Source: an uncultured Verrucomicrobiae bacterium (GTDB taxonomy: Bacteria > Verrucomicrobiota > Verrucomicrobiia > Limisphaerales > UBA11358). Taken from it: a stretch of DNA of 64,000 nt. The notes below the pieces were generated by a model that was not told the DNA's origin, did not search any database, and saw only the letters and a program-made list of their open reading frames with translations. The stretch lies in contig CAWEAA010000008.1 in assembly GCA_963806905.1 (NCBI GenBank), positions 588,336 to 652,335 of the forward strand. The letters are read 5' to 3'. Of the stretch, positions 5,431-50,014 are shown piece by piece; within the stretch, counting starts at the first letter, position 1, and the number at the start of each line of letters is the position of its first letter. A program made the position numbers and the translations under genes.

Positions 5431-5586
5431 TGACGAGTGACGAGTGACATGCTACGTTCATTTCCGATAGTGCCCTGATTCGGTGGCGGCGGTGCCGCCG
5501 CACCGCCGTGCGCCGCAGCAGCGGCGCATCCACCAACATCAAATCAGGACCGTAAGCCATTTCCGCGCCACTTGTCACTTGTCACT
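5431..5586. repeat. Inverted pair of heptamer mini-arrays (TGACGAG x2.9 at 5431-5450; CACTTGT x2.6 at 5569-5586)
   Basis: Read directly. The arms are reverse complements except at positions giving G:T pairs on the plus strand. They enclose about 120 nt containing GC-rich hairpins (e.g. TGCGCCGC-AGCA-GCGGCGCA). Located just upstream of lpxI. Confidence 0.6.
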
Positions 5587-18075: not shown

Positions 18076-18144
18076 GTAGCGGTGTCTCGGCAGAGCGCCG
18101 TATTTTGCTGTTGAACTGTCCGGCTTTCTGCCGAAAGCCGCTAC
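18076..18144. repeat. Inverted doublet of GTAG-headed imperfect palindromes (REPIN-like)
   Basis: GTAGCGGTGTCTCGGCAGAGCGCCG (18076-18100). The reverse complement of 18121-18144 is GTAGCGGCTTTCGGCAGAAAGCCG. Each unit can fold as a hairpin. Located between the PD40 gene and the DUF167 gene. Confidence 0.55.
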
Positions 18145-18158
18145 GCCTATAACGCAAC

Positions 18159-18449
18159 GTGCCGCTTCCGAATTTTCTCCGCGAACAGCCGGACGGAGTT
18201 TTATTGTCAGTAAAACTGCAGCCGCGCGCGTCCACCGATGAAATTGGAACGCCGCTGGGCGACGAATTAAAAATCAAAGTAACCGCCCCGCCTGTGGATG
18301 CCGCGGCAAACATGGCGCTGATTGACTTACTTGCCGAAAAATTGGATTGCAGTCGCAACCGGATTGAGCTGGTTCGTGGCCACAAATCGCGGCACAAGAT
18401 TGTCAGGCTTCACGGTTTTACGGTGGAAGAGGTATTCAAGAAATTGTAA
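18159..18449 (+). CDS. DUF167 (YggU-like) family protein
   Basis: 96 aa with a GTG start. GVLLSVKLQPRASTDEI...LKIKVTAPPVDAAANMALIDLLA...VRGHKSRHKIV matches the YggU/DUF167 pattern. Confidence 0.75.
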   Translation: MPLPNFLREQPDGVLLSVKLQPRASTDEIGTPLGDELKIKVTAPPVDAAANMALIDLLAEKLDCSRNRIELVRGHKSRHKIVRLHGFTVEEVFKKL

Positions 18450-19971
18450 TTTGCCCTGCCAGCTCCTCCGCCGGGTAAGTCCAGATTTCAGCAAGTGTCG
18501 GATGGTAATGCGGCATCGCGGCAAGCTCGTGAACGGTCATGTGCTTGGCCATCGCGGCGACGATTTCGTGAATCAATTCACCCCCGACCGGCCCGACGCA
18601 CGCGCCGCCGAGAATTTCGCCCGCCCGCGTGGCCGAAGCTCCACCGGCTTGTTTTCCCGCATCGCTGCTTGAACTGCCTGCGTTCAGTGAACCCGCTGGC
18701 ACTACGGCGCGGCGAAGGCCCGACTTCGGGTCGGCCAGCAGTTTTACAAAACCGTCCTTGGCTTCCATGATGAGCGATTTGCCGTGGTCGTTGAACGGAT
18801 AGCCGGCCACTAAAAAAGAGATGCCGCGCGCCTTGGCTTCTTTTTCCGTCAAACCGACAAAAGCCACCTGCGGTTCGGTGAACACGACTGAAATCAGCAG
18901 CCGGTAATCCATTTTTCGCGGCGCGTTTGGATGGGCAATGTTGTGCGCGGCGATTTCGCCCTGCTGGACGGCGATATGCACAATTTCGTGCGGCCCGGTA
19001 CAATCGCCGGCAGTGTAAATATGCGGTGCGCTCGTCTGCATGAAGGCGTTTGCAATGATGCGGCCGTTGGCGGTGGCGACCCCGGCCTTTTCCAAACTCA
19101 GCGACGCCGTGTTCGGCACACGGCCCAGCGCGAACAAAATTTCTTCAGCGGAAACGGAAACTACTTTGCTGTTATGTTCAAACGAAACAGTCTTCAGCCC
19201 GCGTTTGTGCCGCGCACCGATCAACTTTGTGTCGGTGAAAACCTTGACACCTCCGCGCCGGAAAACCTTTTCGATTTCTGCCGCGGCGTCGGTGTCGAAT
19301 TCCTTCAAAATGTGTTGGCTGCGCTGGATGAGTGTGACCTTGACGCCGAACCGCACGAAGAACTGGGCGAACTCACATGCAACCGCCCCGCCACCGAGGA
19401 CGATGAGTGATTTCGGCAATCGCTTGAGCGCCAGCGCGTCATCGCTCGTGATGTAACCGGTTTCGCAGAGTTGAGGCAAAGGCGGCGCAACGTTTGAGCC
19501 GGTGGCGATGATGAAGTATCTGGCGGTGAGTTTGGTAGGGACGCGCTGCTGCGCGTCTTGGCCGACCGGCAGGTCGGCCCTACCGAGTTCAACAGTATGT
19601 GCATCCACAAACTGCGCATTGGCGCGGATGAATTTGAATTTTCCTGCGTTGAGCTGCTTAACGCGGTAGTCAGCAAAATCCTTGATAAGCGCATTTTTTC
19701 GCGCCATCACCTTTTTGAAATCAAAGCCGACTTTTCCGGCGCAGATGCCCCACGGTTCGGAATGACCGGCTAGATGCATGACTTCGGAGGCGTAAAGCAG
19801 CGCTTTGGTCGGCATACAACCGCGCAGGATGCACAAACCGCCAACGTCTTCGCCACCTTCGATGACGATTGTTTTCAAACCCGCGCTGGCCGCCGTTCGC
19901 GCCGCCGCGTAGCCGCCGCTGCCGCCGCCAATCACCGCCACGTCAAAATCGTATCCGCCACGCTGCTTCAT
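18436..19971 (-). CDS. FAD-dependent pyridine nucleotide-disulfide oxidoreductase (dihydrolipoyl dehydrogenase / mercuric reductase-like class I)
   Basis: YDFDVAVIGGGSGGYAAA FAD fold and the redox-active GGLCILRGCMPTK disulfide. A C-terminal dimerisation domain is present. The start was taken at MKQRGG (19971). Confidence 0.8.
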   Translation of the reverse strand: MKQRGGYDFDVAVIGGGSGGYAAARTAASAGLKTIVIEGGEDVGGLCILRGCMPTKALLYASEVMHLAGHSEPWGICAGKVGFDFKKVMARKNALIKDFADYRVKQLNAGKFKFIRANAQFVDAHTVELGRADLPVGQDAQQRVPTKLTARYFIIATGSNVAPPLPQLCETGYITSDDALALKRLPKSLIVLGGGAVACEFAQFFVRFGVKVTLIQRSQHILKEFDTDAAAEIEKVFRRGGVKVFTDTKLIGARHKRGLKTVSFEHNSKVVSVSAEEILFALGRVPNTASLSLEKAGVATANGRIIANAFMQTSAPHIYTAGDCTGPHEIVHIAVQQGEIAAHNIAHPNAPRKMDYRLLISVVFTEPQVAFVGLTEKEAKARGISFLVAGYPFNDHGKSLIMEAKDGFVKLLADPKSGLRRAVVPAGSLNAGSSSSDAGKQAGGASATRAGEILGGACVGPVGGELIHEIVAAMAKHMTVHELAAMPHYHPTLAEIWTYPAEELAGQITIS

Positions 19972-20086
19972 GCTGCGAGCATGAGCCAGAACATTGGCGC
20001 TGACAAGAACGCAGCCGACGCCAGTCAATTTGCCTCACAGTCGAAATTTATTTGCCGCACGGATTTATTGCCCTGACAATGACTTC

Positions 20087-37207: not shown

Positions 37208-38344
37208 ATGAGTGCGAAAACTAAATCTGACACCAAAGACCGGTTCGTCATCATTATGGCGGGCGGGCGCGGCGAACGGTTCTGGCCGGTCAGCCGCGAG
37301 AAAATGCCCAAGCAACTGCTCACGCTGTTCGGCAACCGCTCGTTTTTGCAGGAGACCGTTGACCGTGTGCTGCCGCTCGTTCCGGCCAAAAACATTTTTG
37401 TCATCACGACTGAGGTGCAACTGCCGGAAGTCCGCAAACAGCTCCCTAAAATCCCCAAAGCCAATCTCATTGCCGAGCCGGTTGGCCGCGACACGTGCGC
37501 GGCGGTCACGCTCGGCGCGGCACTCGTTGGCGCGCGTTCGACGACCGGCGTCATGGCGGTTTTGCCTGCCGACCACGTGATTCCCGACGAGAAAAAGTTC
37601 CAGCAGGTTTTAAGCGACGCGTTCGATTTGGCCAGTCGTGGCCAGGCCATCATTACTATTGGCATCAAACCGGCCGGGCCAGACACGGGTTACGGTTACA
37701 TTCACGTCGGCCCGGAATTGCCACCGGCGCAAGGCGCGAAAAAGACCAAAACCACCTTTTATCGGGCGGAACGGTTTGTCGAGAAACCGCATTTTGATCG
37801 CGCGCTCGAATACGTCAACAGCGGCCAGTACCGCTGGAACGCCGGCATGTTTGTCTGGTCGTTTGTGACCGTCACGGAAGGATTGCAGAAGCATCAGCCG
37901 GAGATGTACGCGGCGTGCCAGCGCTGGTTCAAGGTGGCTAACCAGCCCGCCAAACTCGCCAGGGTGCTGGCGAAGGACTATCCCGGCATCAAAAAGGTTT
38001 CGATTGATTACGCGCTGATGGAGCAATCGCAGAACGTCATCGTGGCCGACGGGGCGTTTGAATGGGACGACATCGGCTCATGGACGGCGCTGGCGCGGCA
38101 TCTCAAGGCCGACCCGGAAGGGAACTGCGCCGTGGCGGATTTCATCCATGTGGACGGTGCGCGGAACATCATCTTCGACGCCCGCATCAAAAACCGCACG
38201 CCGATTGCGGTAGTCGGTTTGCGCGATTCGATTCTGGTGCAAACCGATGACGCGGTGTTGCTCGCGCATAAAAGCCAGGCGCAGAAGGTCAAGGAATTGG
38301 TCAGAAAACTGTCCGAGGACGCGAAGTTGAAGAAGCTCGTGTAG
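37208..38344 (+). CDS. Mannose-1-phosphate guanylyltransferase (short form, no isomerase domain)
   Basis: 378 aa. FVIIMAGGRGERFWPVSREKMPKQLL nucleotidyltransferase start, followed by DYGYI-type GYGYIHVG and a left-handed helix C-terminus. Confidence 0.85.
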   Translation: MSAKTKSDTKDRFVIIMAGGRGERFWPVSREKMPKQLLTLFGNRSFLQETVDRVLPLVPAKNIFVITTEVQLPEVRKQLPKIPKANLIAEPVGRDTCAAVTLGAALVGARSTTGVMAVLPADHVIPDEKKFQQVLSDAFDLASRGQAIITIGIKPAGPDTGYGYIHVGPELPPAQGAKKTKTTFYRAERFVEKPHFDRALEYVNSGQYRWNAGMFVWSFVTVTEGLQKHQPEMYAACQRWFKVANQPAKLARVLAKDYPGIKKVSIDYALMEQSQNVIVADGAFEWDDIGSWTALARHLKADPEGNCAVADFIHVDGARNIIFDARIKNRTPIAVVGLRDSILVQTDDAVLLAHKSQAQKVKELVRKLSEDAKLKKLV

Positions 38345-38462
38345 CCGCGTTTGTAAAAACGCGGTTGGAGCGCCCGTAGCCGCGCTTGCGAAAGCGCGGA
38401 AGGGATTAACGGATGGAAGAAATCCGCGTTTTGACAAACGCGGCTGCGATGAAAGCGGCTAC
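38341..38462. repeat. REP-like hairpin cluster upstream of the RAYT-like gene (two forward units + one inverted unit)
   Basis: GTAGCCGCGTTTgtaaAAACGCGG (38341-38364) and GTAGCCGCGCTTgcgaAAGCGCGG (38376-38399). The inverted unit CCGCGTTTtgacAAACGCGG...CTAC lies at 38424-38462. All units carry a GTAG/CTAC head next to an 8-bp stem. Confidence 0.8.
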
Positions 38463-38469
38463 GGTGAAA

Positions 38470-39048
38470 ATGGACAGGCTTATTGAACAGAAGGACAATT
38501 TACCACGGCTGTTTCGCCATCATTACCAAGGCCATGCGGTTGTCCTGTGGACGCTGACTTTGGAGCATCGTGCCACCGGCTGGTTGAACGAATCTTTTCA
38601 TGCCTGTTTTCGAGAACTTATGCTGCACGCGGCAGTTCGTGAGCAAGTTTGGTGTCCGACGTATTGTCTGATGCCCGATCACCTGCACCTCGTCTGGATG
38701 GGGATGCGACGTGAAAGTGACCAGCTCAATGCCATGAGATTCCTCCGTCGCCAATTGGCGCCCGTGCTCGAGCCACACAAGTTCCAACATCAGGCCCACG
38801 ACCATGTTCTGCGTGAGGAAGAGCACAAACGCGGCGCATTCGCGCGGGTTTGTTTCTATGTGCTGGCCAATCCGGTTCTCGCAAAGTTGGTGACTGAGGA
38901 CGGGGTCTGGCCGTTCAGCGGCGCGATGGTACCCGGTTATCCAGCGTTGCATCCCAGGCAGGAGGATTTCTGGGAGAAGTATTGGAAACTCTATGCGGCC
39001 GAATGGGAAAATGAACCGCCGGCGCCGTCGGTTCCGCCTTTGCATTGA
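38470..39048 (+). mobile_element. HUH/Y1 transposase-like protein (REP-associated tyrosine transposase, RAYT-like; COG1943-type)
   Basis: HUH motif in YCLMPDHLHLVW. C-terminal catalytic-Tyr helix FYVLANPVLAKLV followed by WPFSG. Flanked on both sides by GTAG-headed hairpins. The start was taken at MDRLIEQ because the ORF-track N-terminus is translated REP sequence. Confidence 0.7.
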
Positions 39049-39052
39049 AATG

Positions 39053-39122
39053 GAGCCGCTCTGGCAAGAGCGCGGTCGGGGGTAACGGATGGGAAAATCC
39101 GCGTTTTGACAAACGCGGCTAC
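39053..39122. repeat. REP-like hairpin doublet downstream of the RAYT-like gene
   Basis: Degenerate forward unit GAGCCGCTCTggcaAGAGCGCGG (39053-39075) and inverted unit CCGCGTTTtgacAAACGCGGCTAC (39099-39122). 39083-39120 nearly repeats 38407-38445 (TAACGGATGG-AA-ATCCGCGTTTTGACAAACGCGGCT). Confidence 0.75.
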
Positions 39123-39151
39123 GGTGTGGGGCAATCGCCGCCAAACGCGGC

Positions 39152-39199: not shown

Positions 39200-41035
<1,836 letters not shown>

Positions 41036-47350: not shown

Positions 47351-48175
47351 ATGAATTGGTCGCCTAGCTTGATTGCTACGGGAATTTGGATTGTGATTTC
47401 TTCGTTTCTTGGCCTGCTTGAGTTATTATTAAGATACCGTTGGAAAGATGGCAGAACGCAGAAATACAAAATCGCGCGAAAGTATTTGTTTGTCCTTTTC
47501 ATTCTTTCGTCGATTTTTGCACTAGCTCTGACGATGTATGACAAAACTCGCGCAGAACAGGAAAGCCTGCGTTTAGCAAAGGCACTTAGGGAAGCGGCTG
47601 ATGACCGAAAAAAACATGCAACGGCTGGACGTATAGAAACTCTTACGGGTTTATCTCAAGCATTCGTAATCGGAGATTCTGGAACAGCTTTTATTTCTTT
47701 CCGCTCTGCATCGTTGTTTGATGCGCTTCCATTTCCCCCAATGATTCAAAAAATTGCCAAACAGAATTCTGTAATTATTGGCAATACATTAGACGGAAAA
47801 TTGAGCGTATCCGCTCGGATTTGCGGTCGCGACGGTCTAATCGCGGAAATAAACGACAATGAATGGAAAGTTAATCCTTCAAAAAGTTGGGACAGAAATT
47901 ACTCGTCTAATGCATTTGAAGTTCAAAATGCTGACGGAGAAATTGTGTTTCAGGTCAAAATTGAAAAAGACTCAAACTTCGGCGGTTTGGGCGTTGCGCA
48001 TTTTCAGGGCATTTTTTTCGATTCAGATGGCAACGGAATTGGATTTACAGAAGTTGGAAAAGCAAAAGGTGCTTTTTTTTCTTTTTTACCAGCAAATTCT
48101 GGACGCCCGCTGCCGCAGATAAAACCACTATTCAAATATCCTAGTGAACTTCATTTAGGAGATTTGTCGGAATAG
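47351..48175 (+). CDS. Orphan membrane-anchored protein in a low-GC segment
   Basis: 274 aa. Two N-terminal TM helices (LIATGIWIVISSFLGLLELLL, YLFVLFILSSIFALALTMY), a coiled segment and a beta-rich C-terminal domain. No recognised motif. GC is visibly about 40-45% against about 60% in the flanks. Confidence 0.55.
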   Translation: MNWSPSLIATGIWIVISSFLGLLELLLRYRWKDGRTQKYKIARKYLFVLFILSSIFALALTMYDKTRAEQESLRLAKALREAADDRKKHATAGRIETLTGLSQAFVIGDSGTAFISFRSASLFDALPFPPMIQKIAKQNSVIIGNTLDGKLSVSARICGRDGLIAEINDNEWKVNPSKSWDRNYSSNAFEVQNADGEIVFQVKIEKDSNFGGLGVAHFQGIFFDSDGNGIGFTEVGKAKGAFFSFLPANSGRPLPQIKPLFKYPSELHLGDLSE

Positions 48176-49919: not shown

Positions 49920-49982
49920 GGAGTTCCGCCTTCAGGCGGTTCGGTGGCATACATTTCCCCTGCCGCGTAAACGCGGAACTCC
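49920..49982. repeat. Nested-hairpin intergenic element
   Basis: Perfect 10-bp inverted repeat GGAGTTCCGC (49920-49929) / GCGGAACTCC (49973-49982). It encloses hairpins CCGCCttcaGGCGG (49926-49939) and CCGCGTaaACGCGG (49963-49976). The latter shares its stem with the REPs at 38.3-39.1 kb. Confidence 0.65.
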
Positions 49983-50014
49983 TAACGGTTCAGAGGCCGA
50001 AACGTCCGGTTTTG

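Follow-up and report, generated by a model that had tools for sequence, protein, structure and literature searches.

A RAYT-like gene and its flanking GTAG hairpins as a probable REPtron in uncultured Verrucomicrobiota

The stretch of DNA analyzed here, 64 kb of contig CAWEAA010000008.1 (assembly GCA_963806905.1; in the following the window, to whose positions all coordinates refer), carries, in this order, a manC-like gene, a group of hairpins, one forward-strand open reading frame (ORF), a second group of hairpins, and typA/bipA (Table 1). The ORF was analyzed as a candidate gene for a tyrosine transposase of the kind associated with repetitive extragenic palindromes (REPs), in short a RAYT or TnpA-REP, and the hairpins as its candidate REPs, which together would constitute a REPtron. 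RAYTs and REPtrons were defined in Proteobacteria.

Hairpins and gene between manC and typA

Two forward hairpins and one inverted hairpin were found upstream of the gene, and a degenerate forward hairpin and an inverted one downstream, which is the arrangement that an original prediction for this stretch had described. Its description of every unit as an 8-bp stem next to GTAG or CTAC holds for the intact units, but not for REP-3, which is composed of CCGCGTTT-TGAC-AAACGCGG followed by CTGC, one mismatch from CTAC, nor for REP-4, with its GGAG head and 6-bp stem; the position of REP-4 is occupied in orthologs by an intact GTAGCCGCGCTTGT[GA]AAAGCGCGG. REP-1 and REP-5 are 96% complementary, and between REP-1 and REP-2 a T-A pair of the stem is replaced by C-G, a compensated change. 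One head-out doublet of ~72 nt is present twice, as REP-2/REP-3 and as REP-4/REP-5, and its two copies flank the gene in direct orientation. The direct repeat of ~38 nt that had been noticed on both sides of the gene is thus real but longer than claimed, as the whole doublet at 38378-38451 recurs at 39054-39126, in two segments with 77% and 94% identity. In the 15-nt duplication that follows REP-3, the second copy keeps GCGGCTAC and has the CTAC head, and this duplication is not present in orthologs (the upstream regions of L095 and L003 were compared). On the other side, the stop codon TAG of manC (38342-38344) comes from the GTAG head of REP-1, and the same overlap was found in the orthologous loci L002, L003, L011 and L095. 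In L006, the gene at the manC position ends with TGA, and the head of the neighboring hairpin has decayed to GCAG.

The word GTAGCCGCG occurs 3 times in the window in comparison to 0.47 times expected, and the perfect CCGCGTTT-N4-AAACGCGG hairpins of the window all lie at the RAYT locus, while GTAG-headed hairpins of any sequence numbered 9 in the window in comparison to about 1 in second-order Markov samples. When folded as single-stranded DNA, the intact units formed an 8-bp stem with a 4-nt loop and left GTAG unpaired, with energies of -8.9 to -10.8 kcal/mol and z scores of -3.3 to -4.1 (-9.7 kcal/mol and z -4.1 for REP-1, -10.8 kcal/mol for REP-2); REP-4 folded alone had a z score of -1.3, like shuffled sequences. 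No Rfam match was found in the whole window at the gathering threshold, and the hairpins therefore do not belong to a curated RNA family.

Public annotations of the gene disagree: an NCBI assembly gives it 125 aa and Logan 211 aa, and in most of them the product is hypothetical. The ORF has 211 aa when read from its first ATG (38413) and 192 aa when read from the ATG at 38470. The homologs are mostly 192 to 195 aa long and their start aligns with the second ATG. Based on the length of most homologs, and because a start at 38413 would place REP-3 inside the ORF, 38470 is most likely the start of the gene. In orthologs the CTAC ends 1 to 9 nt 5' of the start codon, so that the inverted hairpin stands outside the coding region.

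Table 1. Features of the manC-typA region of the window
Feature	Position	Strand	Description
manC-like gene	37208-38344		NTP_transferase and ManC beta-helix domains
REP-1	38341-38364	+	GTAGCCGCGTTTGTAAAAACGCGG; GTAG head, 8-bp stem CCGCGTTT/AAACGCGG, GTAA loop
REP-2	38376-38399	+	GTAGCCGCGCTTGCGAAAGCGCGG; GTAG head, stem CCGCGCTT/AAGCGCGG, GCGA loop; left half of the upstream head-out doublet
REP-3	38424-38447	-	CCGCGTTTTGACAAACGCGGCTGC; CCGCGTTTTGACAAACGCGG with CTGC head; right half of the upstream doublet
REP-3 3' half, duplicated in tandem (15 nt)	38437-38466	+	AACGCGGCTGCGATG / AAAGCGGCTACGGTG
RAYT gene (TnpA-REP-like)	38470-39048	+	192 aa
REP-4 (degenerate)	39052-39075	+	GGAGCCGCTCTGGCAAGAGCGCGG; GGAG head, 6-bp stem; left half of the downstream doublet
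REP-5 (intact)	39099-39122	-	CCGCGTTTTGACAAACGCGGCTAC; CCGCGTTTTGACAAACGCGG with CTAC; right half of the downstream doublet
Half-REP remnant	39141-39151	+	CCAAACGCGGC; abuts promoter-like TTGACC-16-TAGACT 5' of typA; kept in L003
typA/bipA	39200-41035

Protein identity, host lineage and inheritance

Both the HUH motif (histidine-hydrophobic-histidine; PDHLHLV, with H71 and H73) and the Tyr motif (FYVLANPV, with the catalytic Y130 in Y130-V-L-A-N134-P135) are present, as had been predicted, and are invariant in the homologs. In an alignment of 46 homologs with 59% to 88% identity, H71, H73, Y130, N134, P135, Q106 and R115 were found invariant and D111 and H112 nearly so, position 105 is a W in many homologs, and a C-terminal extension is conserved as well (W147...W168, W172). 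The pattern Y-x-x-x-N-P is the signature of class 2 (TnpA-REP), while IS200 transposases have Y-x-x-x-Q (PMC6006769), and it is the former that the protein of the window carries.

The Pfam search of the protein gave no match to PF01797 (Y1_Tnp, the family of single-tyrosine, Y1, transposases) and nothing else of relevance, and PF01797 matched only weakly in 7 of 46 family members. The NCBIfam model NF047646 ("REP-associated tyrosine transposase") was matched over its full length (E 7.9e-13), with 48.5 bits in comparison to a cut-off of 80 bits. The clade is more divergent than the models of Pfam and NCBIfam cover. When all Protein Data Bank (PDB) sequences were searched, the E. coli TnpA-REP (4ER8) was the sole significant relative, with E 0.0068 for the single sequence and 1.4e-8 for the 46-sequence profile. 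The prediction that the protein would score as a Y1/HUH transposase is thus borne out by NF047646 and 4ER8, but not by PF01797, and in the case of NF047646 below its cut-off. In the alignment with 4ER8, PDHLH corresponds to PEHMH (HUH), FYVLANPV to DYIYINPV (catalytic Tyr and N119), and F-Q-H-Q-A-H-D-H-V-L-R to W94-Q95-P-R-F-W-E100-H101-A-I-R104, the stretch of the E. coli enzyme in which contacts with GTAG have been reported for W94, Q95, E100, H101 and R104 (PMC6006769). Their predicted counterparts in the protein of the window are F105, Q106, D111, H112 and R115. An AlphaFold model built from the 46 sequences was of low confidence (pLDDT, the predicted local distance difference test, 63); its top Foldseek match was again 4ER8 (probability 0.97, template modeling (TM) score 0.43 to 0.49), followed by the TnpA proteins of IS200, IS608 and ISDra2. 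As the structural model is poor the fold match is weak, and by the Foldseek ranking the protein may have a TnpA-REP fold. By its residues it is to be classed as a Y1/HUH enzyme of class 2, though a divergent one.

At E ≤ 1e-3 a total of 1332 homologs were found, the best 120 of these 1332 with 63% to 100% identity, and many of them carry the JGI label "REP element-mobilizing transposase RayT". Those homologs that have organism names are labelled as Verrucomicrobiota, Verrucomicrobiae or Limisphaerales, which agrees with the suspicion that the host lies outside Proteobacteria; judged by these relatives, the host is a member of Verrucomicrobiota and probably of Limisphaerales.

At loci whose RAYT is 74% to 88% identical to that of the window, the gene is located directly 3' of manC, followed by typA in L002 and L003/L004, and has REP doublets of the window family on both sides; these manC-RAYT loci have ~71% to 85% DNA identity over the aligned region. 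A 65%-identical relative (L005) has a different gene context. The RAYT of the window is present in one copy with a GC content like that of its surroundings, and no other RAYT-like gene came up when every ORF of the window was searched with a profile hidden Markov model. In L003/L004 and L097 a second paralog, 54% to 56% identical and with its own, different hairpins, lies a few kb away. RAYTs, unlike insertion sequences, are described as having a low copy number, diverged paralogs and synteny (PMC5581495), and low copy number, conserved synteny and no identical copies were what we found. To judge from this context, the RAYT gene is chromosomal, single-copy in the window and vertically inherited. 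In the window, the slot that the second paralog and its own REPs occupy in L003/L004 and L097 holds an AT-rich ORF of 274 aa without obvious relatives (47351-48175), with a radical-SAM/TRAM gene on one side and a gene for a membrane protein on the other.

Hairpins across the protein family and in other genomes

A further 80 loci of the protein family with 53% to 82% identity were collected from metagenomes, and hairpins with a GT[AG]G head at most 250 nt from the gene were counted on non-redundant loci, with the loop left free. The results showed such a hairpin upstream in 69 of 81 loci, downstream in 70 of 80, and on both sides in 57 of 71, in comparison to a background of 0.21 per kb at more than 600 nt from the gene and of ~0.04 per kb in a composition-matched null. 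Even though the loop was unconstrained in the search, it was GTNA in 250 of the 264 family hairpins. A strict detector that allowed at most one stem mismatch recovered flanking REPs at only ~40% of the family loci, and it was relaxed because the seemingly negative loci had GTAG hairpins with tandem G.A mismatches.

The type of hairpin was found to track the protein clade over more than 80 loci. The window family, GTAG-CCGCRYTT, accompanies proteins with 74% to 100% identity to the window gene, GTAG-C-AGCGGAC / ATCGAAC those with about 55% to 69%, a 5-bp stem with tandem G.A and a closing pair (GTAGCCGCCGASGTNASGAGGCGG, GTAGCAGCCGAC..GGAGGCTC) those with about 58% to 67%, and GTAGCCGCGAAC / CCGCCGAC the 54% to 58% paralog, and pairing is also kept in other stems (GCAT/ATGC, CCGA/TCGG etc.). 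At least four hairpin families may have accompanied the 192-aa clade, namely CCGCGYTT stems, CCGCSGAY-type stems, CAGCGGAC stems and tandem-G.A-mismatch stems, all with a GTAG head and a GTNA loop. Since co-variation of the enzyme with its flanking repeats is the hallmark of REPtrons, this result points to the locus being one. The number of doublets beside the gene, one to three, varies between orthologous loci.

The pattern GTAGCCGCGYTTN4AARCGCGG (GTAGCCGCGYTT-N4-AARCGCGG) was then searched in a collection of 596 Gb, where it matched at least 120 stretches in comparison to a rough chance expectation of ~4. The following counts refer to the stretches listed, with 139 copies; the source genome of the window is not among them, and copy numbers per genome are lower bounds. 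Nearly all listed matches are in metagenome-assembled genomes (MAGs) of Verrucomicrobiota, one of which has at least 12 separate stretches. A homolog of the RAYT gene was found in 3 of the 120 stretches, and the hairpin alone in 117. Dispersed copies were also found in MAGs that have a RAYT 84% to 88% identical to that of the window, i.e., DATEGR01 (L011, L111) and JBEKXN01 (L097, L022, L025, L051). The predicted dispersal of the hairpin therefore holds for these mostly Verrucomicrobiota MAGs but not for the 64-kb window, since no other copy of the REP family was found in its remaining ~63 kb.

Among the copies listed, the Y/R pair of the stem is kept in 137 of 139 and the free loop is GTGA, GTCA or GTAA in 118 of 139. 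Their flanks hold no information outside the unit, which places the copies in unrelated contexts, except for a pyrimidine at position -1 of GTAG (124 of 136). In terms of arrangement, most units were paired, and there were 65 doublets with heads out (GTAG...CTAC, with spacers of 3 to 61 nt), none with the reverse order, and 65 singletons; many of the doublets are heterodimers of two different stems and would therefore not form a single long hairpin of the REPIN type (REP doublet forming hairpins). The spacer between aroC and trpA has one doublet in L002, two in L011 and none in the window, a difference that can be read as presence or absence only, as the spacer alignment was too divergent for insertion boundaries or target. 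By a crude test (a frame without stops over 200 codons or more and periodicity in third-position GC content on both flanks), 19% of the REP clusters were intragenic in comparison to 38% of random segments, so that the repeats appear depleted in genes but far from excluded.

The 24-nt pattern was also found in some records outside Verrucomicrobiota, namely L029 (Pseudomonas sp.), L024 and L118 (Bifidobacteriaceae MAGs), L060 and L125, and on three contigs of DATKBV01, labelled Pirellulaceae (L020, L039, L067), two of them with doublets. These matches may stem from a genuine family of planctomycetes, from contigs that were binned wrongly, or from chance.

Interpretation and relation to known systems

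Taken together, we read the locus, with a probability of about 85%, as a REPtron of Verrucomicrobiota, i.e., a vertically inherited, single-copy RAYT/TnpA-REP gene of class 2 (Y1 HUH) together with its cognate REP hairpins. The original prediction of a RAYT-like HUH transposase with cognate REPs is in this respect supported by the motifs, by 4ER8 and by the hairpins that bracket the gene across the family. By analogy with the E. coli TnpA-REP and with the TnpA proteins of IS608 and ISDra2, the enzyme would act on DNA in single-stranded form, such as the template of the lagging strand, where it would bind the folded hairpin, read the unpaired GTAG, cut beside the hairpin through a 5'-phosphotyrosine intermediate and rejoin the strand. 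A candidate for the site of cleavage is the pyrimidine that is conserved 5' of GTAG. As an outcome, REP doublets would be excised, inserted or exchanged while the RAYT gene stays in place, and the doublets that flank it may be relics of the ends of an ancestral element, through which enzyme and substrate would go on evolving together. In addition, the hairpins may have a secondary role, regulatory or in the processing of transcripts, although none is required.

Several points weigh against this reading. Degeneration is seen in two of the five units beside the gene (a CTGC head in one, a GGAG head and a 6-bp stem in the other), the protein has no Pfam Y1_Tnp match and an NCBIfam score under the curated cut-off, W94 of the E. 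coli enzyme is replaced by F105, though many homologs have a W there, and confidence in the structural model is low (pLDDT 63; TM 0.43 to 0.49 to 4ER8). Moreover, dispersal was seen in related MAGs and not in the other ~63 kb of the window, so that for the source genome it is a prediction from relatives. Activity of the clade is predicted from sequence, and REP mobilization in vivo is still an inference for RAYTs generally.

An alternative, which we consider improbable, is that the hairpins are regulatory elements of the host (terminators, mRNA stabilizers or protein-binding sites) under selection of their own, next to a domesticated HUH nuclease with another role, the adjacency of the two being historical. 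REP-1 is placed exactly at the manC stop and REP-5 just 5' of the promoter-like site of typA, such roles of REPs are documented for Proteobacteria (PMC3733652), and catalysis would here be predicted from the residues of the protein. The co-variation of hairpin type and protein clade over more than 80 loci and the conserved counterparts of the GTAG-contact residues argue against this alternative, and neither the unpaired GTAG head nor the strict head-out order (65:0 among the copies listed) is needed for termination, into which the in-frame doublets inside genes do not fit either. A terminator reading of the hairpins in particular was rejected, because the coding strand has no T-tract 3' of them and terminator-like sites show no enrichment (3 in comparison to 2.3 expected).

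Still less probable is an autonomous insertion sequence of the IS200/IS605 type, in which the gene and subterminal hairpins would move together. It would share the fold and the catalytic motifs, which are common to the TnpA proteins of IS200, IS608 and ISDra2, as well as the hairpins at both ends of the gene, and the weak Y1_Tnp matches in 7 of 46 members would fit it as well. However, the Tyr motif is Y-x-x-x-N-P and not the Y-x-x-x-Q of IS200, the window has one copy of the gene and no tnpB, and the position after manC is kept in species whose RAYT is only 74% to 88% identical. The second copy in L003/L004 and L097 is only 54% to 56% identical with other hairpins, and hairpins stand without the gene in 117 of the 120 stretches listed. 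That a hypothetical ORF lies by coincidence among ordinary palindromes, as the disagreeing and mostly hypothetical annotations (125 aa in NCBI, 211 aa in Logan) might suggest, has next to no probability in view of 1332 homologs, catalytic residues invariant in the homologs aligned, 9 GTAG-headed hairpins in the window in comparison to ~1 expected, and an architecture conserved across the family.

In comparison to the E. coli REPtron (TnpA-REP, 4ER8; subclass 2.2, or group 2 of Bertels), the REPtron proposed here has the same HUH, Tyr and Y-x-x-x-N-P motifs, the counterparts of Q95, H101 and R104, and a single-copy chromosomal gene flanked by REPs with an unpaired 5' GTAG. Its dispersed REPs form inverted pairs, many of them heterodimers, as in the bacterial interspersed mosaic elements (BIMEs) of E. 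coli, and such doublets are closer to BIMEs, or to what Di Nocera et al. call "heterodimers", than to the perfectly self-complementary REPINs. The differences are the host phylum, Verrucomicrobiota, the ~17% identity in the structural alignment, a length of 192 aa in comparison to 165 aa, the conserved C-terminal extension, F in place of W94 and D in place of E100, and a simple 8-bp stem with a GTNA loop instead of the long bulged REP of E. coli.

The closest motif signature is that of the RAYT-REPIN systems of Pseudomonas and Xanthomonas (subclass 2.5, or Bertels group 3), a likeness in motifs only and not a phylogenetic one, with DH[LF]H, WQ and YI[VI]ANP there and DHLH, [WF]Q and Y[VTI]LANP here, and a D at the E100 position. 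Short REPs, vertical inheritance, and diverged RAYT paralogs per genome with an REP family each (here L003/L004) are further likenesses. On the other hand, the protein of the window is ~40 aa longer, many doublets here pair two different stems, and a substantial share of them appear intragenic by the crude test.

For the superphylum of Planctomycetes, Verrucomicrobia and Chlamydiae (PVC), GTAG REPs were described in 2013, with several families side by side, dimers and copies inside genes, together with REPtrons specific to a repeat; the hosts were the verrucomicrobium Opitutus terrae and the planctomycete Rhodopirellula baltica (Di Nocera et al. 2013, PMC3733652). These systems belong to the same phylum or superphylum, and have GTAG or sometimes GTGG heads and 6-bp to 9-bp stems. 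A genome can have several of the REP families, the dimers are head-to-head or tail-to-tail and can be heterodimers, each REPtron is specific to a repeat, and many REPs are intragenic and in frame, all of which resembles what we found. The likeness to O. terrae is one of general description, and the REP family of the window may be one of the published GTAG-17 to GTAG-20 families or a separate one; the host order here is probably Limisphaerales, not Opitutales. Because GTAG REPs and REPtrons had already been described in O. terrae and planctomycetes in 2013 (PMC3733652), the novelty that the original prediction had implied for a RAYT/REP system outside Proteobacteria does not stand. What is new is the lineage, which is probably Limisphaerales with its relatives and consists mostly of MAGs, how broad the protein clade is and that Pfam does not see it, and the GTNA-loop hairpin architecture common to several stem families.

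The TnpA proteins of the IS200/IS605 family (IS608, ISDra2) are like the protein of the window in the Y1 HUH fold, in the recognition of single-strand hairpins and, by analogy, in the presumed 5'-phosphotyrosine chemistry; their Y-x-x-x-Q, many identical copies, frequent tnpB and movement as a unit were not seen at the window locus. An assignment to the TIRYTs (tyrosine transposases associated with terminal inverted repeats; subclass 2.1), which have long terminal inverted repeats with GGGGWSAS, an NH[VYF]H motif and a helix-turn-helix extension at the C-terminus, was rejected, as the flanks in the window are short GTAG hairpins and the motif is DHLH.

A bolder proposal, against which the odds somewhat lie, is that the 192-aa clade is an unclassified RAYT subclass confined to Verrucomicrobiota, missed by surveys with PF01797 or proteobacterial BLAST queries, which would have co-diversified with at least four hairpin families, and whose doublets would insert in frame into housekeeping genes and be exchanged between families at one oxidoreductase site. 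If such a separate subclass is real, it would offer an independent, non-proteobacterial lineage in which to test REPINs and RAYTs as vertically inherited intragenomic replicators. In general, the analysis adds many Verrucomicrobiota, most of them uncultured, to the documented hosts of RAYTs with GTAG REPs and provides a second phylum-level dataset for RAYT/REP co-evolution, while the view of how such systems work is unchanged. For annotation, Pfam and NCBIfam under-call this RAYT clade, the NCBI annotation being a truncated hypothetical protein of 125 aa. In MAGs of Verrucomicrobiota, REP repeats can be a source of wrong annotations and of breaks in the assembly, and they insert additional peptides into real proteins.

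The oxidoreductase site is located in an ORF for a pyridine-nucleotide-disulphide oxidoreductase (Pyr_redox_2/Pyr_redox_dim, 18436-20028, - strand), which contains in frame, at 19535-19583, a tight head-out doublet of another GTAG family (GTAGGGACGCGCTGCTGCGCGTC-TT-GGCCGACCGGCAGGTCGGCCCTAC). At this codon position the orthologs in L002 and L011 have a doublet of a different family (GTAGCAGCGGACGTAAGTCCGCT...AGCCGRCTGACGTCGGCTGC), so that the site may be a hot spot of insertion, or REPs may have been exchanged there. The same ORF has a second in-frame insertion of ~33 aa at ~18621-18718 (LRRAVVPAGSLNAGSSSSDAGKQAGGASATRAG), which splits Pyr_redox_dim and contains a GTAG followed by an imperfect palindrome; the homologous sequence of L002 is without these ~97 nt.

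Some other hairpins were observed in the window. The one at 49963-49976, which had been considered as similar to the REPs of the locus, does not belong to this family; it (CCGCGTAAACGCGG) pairs with a hairpin at ~49926-49939 (CCGCCTTCAGGCGG) in a separate doublet-like structure at 49920-49985, which has a perfect inverted repeat of 10 nt at its borders (GGAGTTCCGC...GCGGAACTCC) and no GTAG head. At 5483-5533, two GTGG-headed GC-rich hairpins (GTGGCGGCGGTGCCGCCGCACCGCC, GTGGATGCGCCGCTGCTGCGGCGCA) stand in opposite orientation ~50 nt apart, and they may be a further doublet or palindromes of the coding sequence. Finally, a head-out doublet of another family, GTAGCGGTGTCTCGGCAGAGCGCCG ... CGGCTTTCTGCCGAAAGCCGCTAC, was found between convergent genes at 18076-18144, and its unit GTAGCGGCTTTCGGTAGAAAGCCG also occurs at position 19233 of L002, at a different locus.

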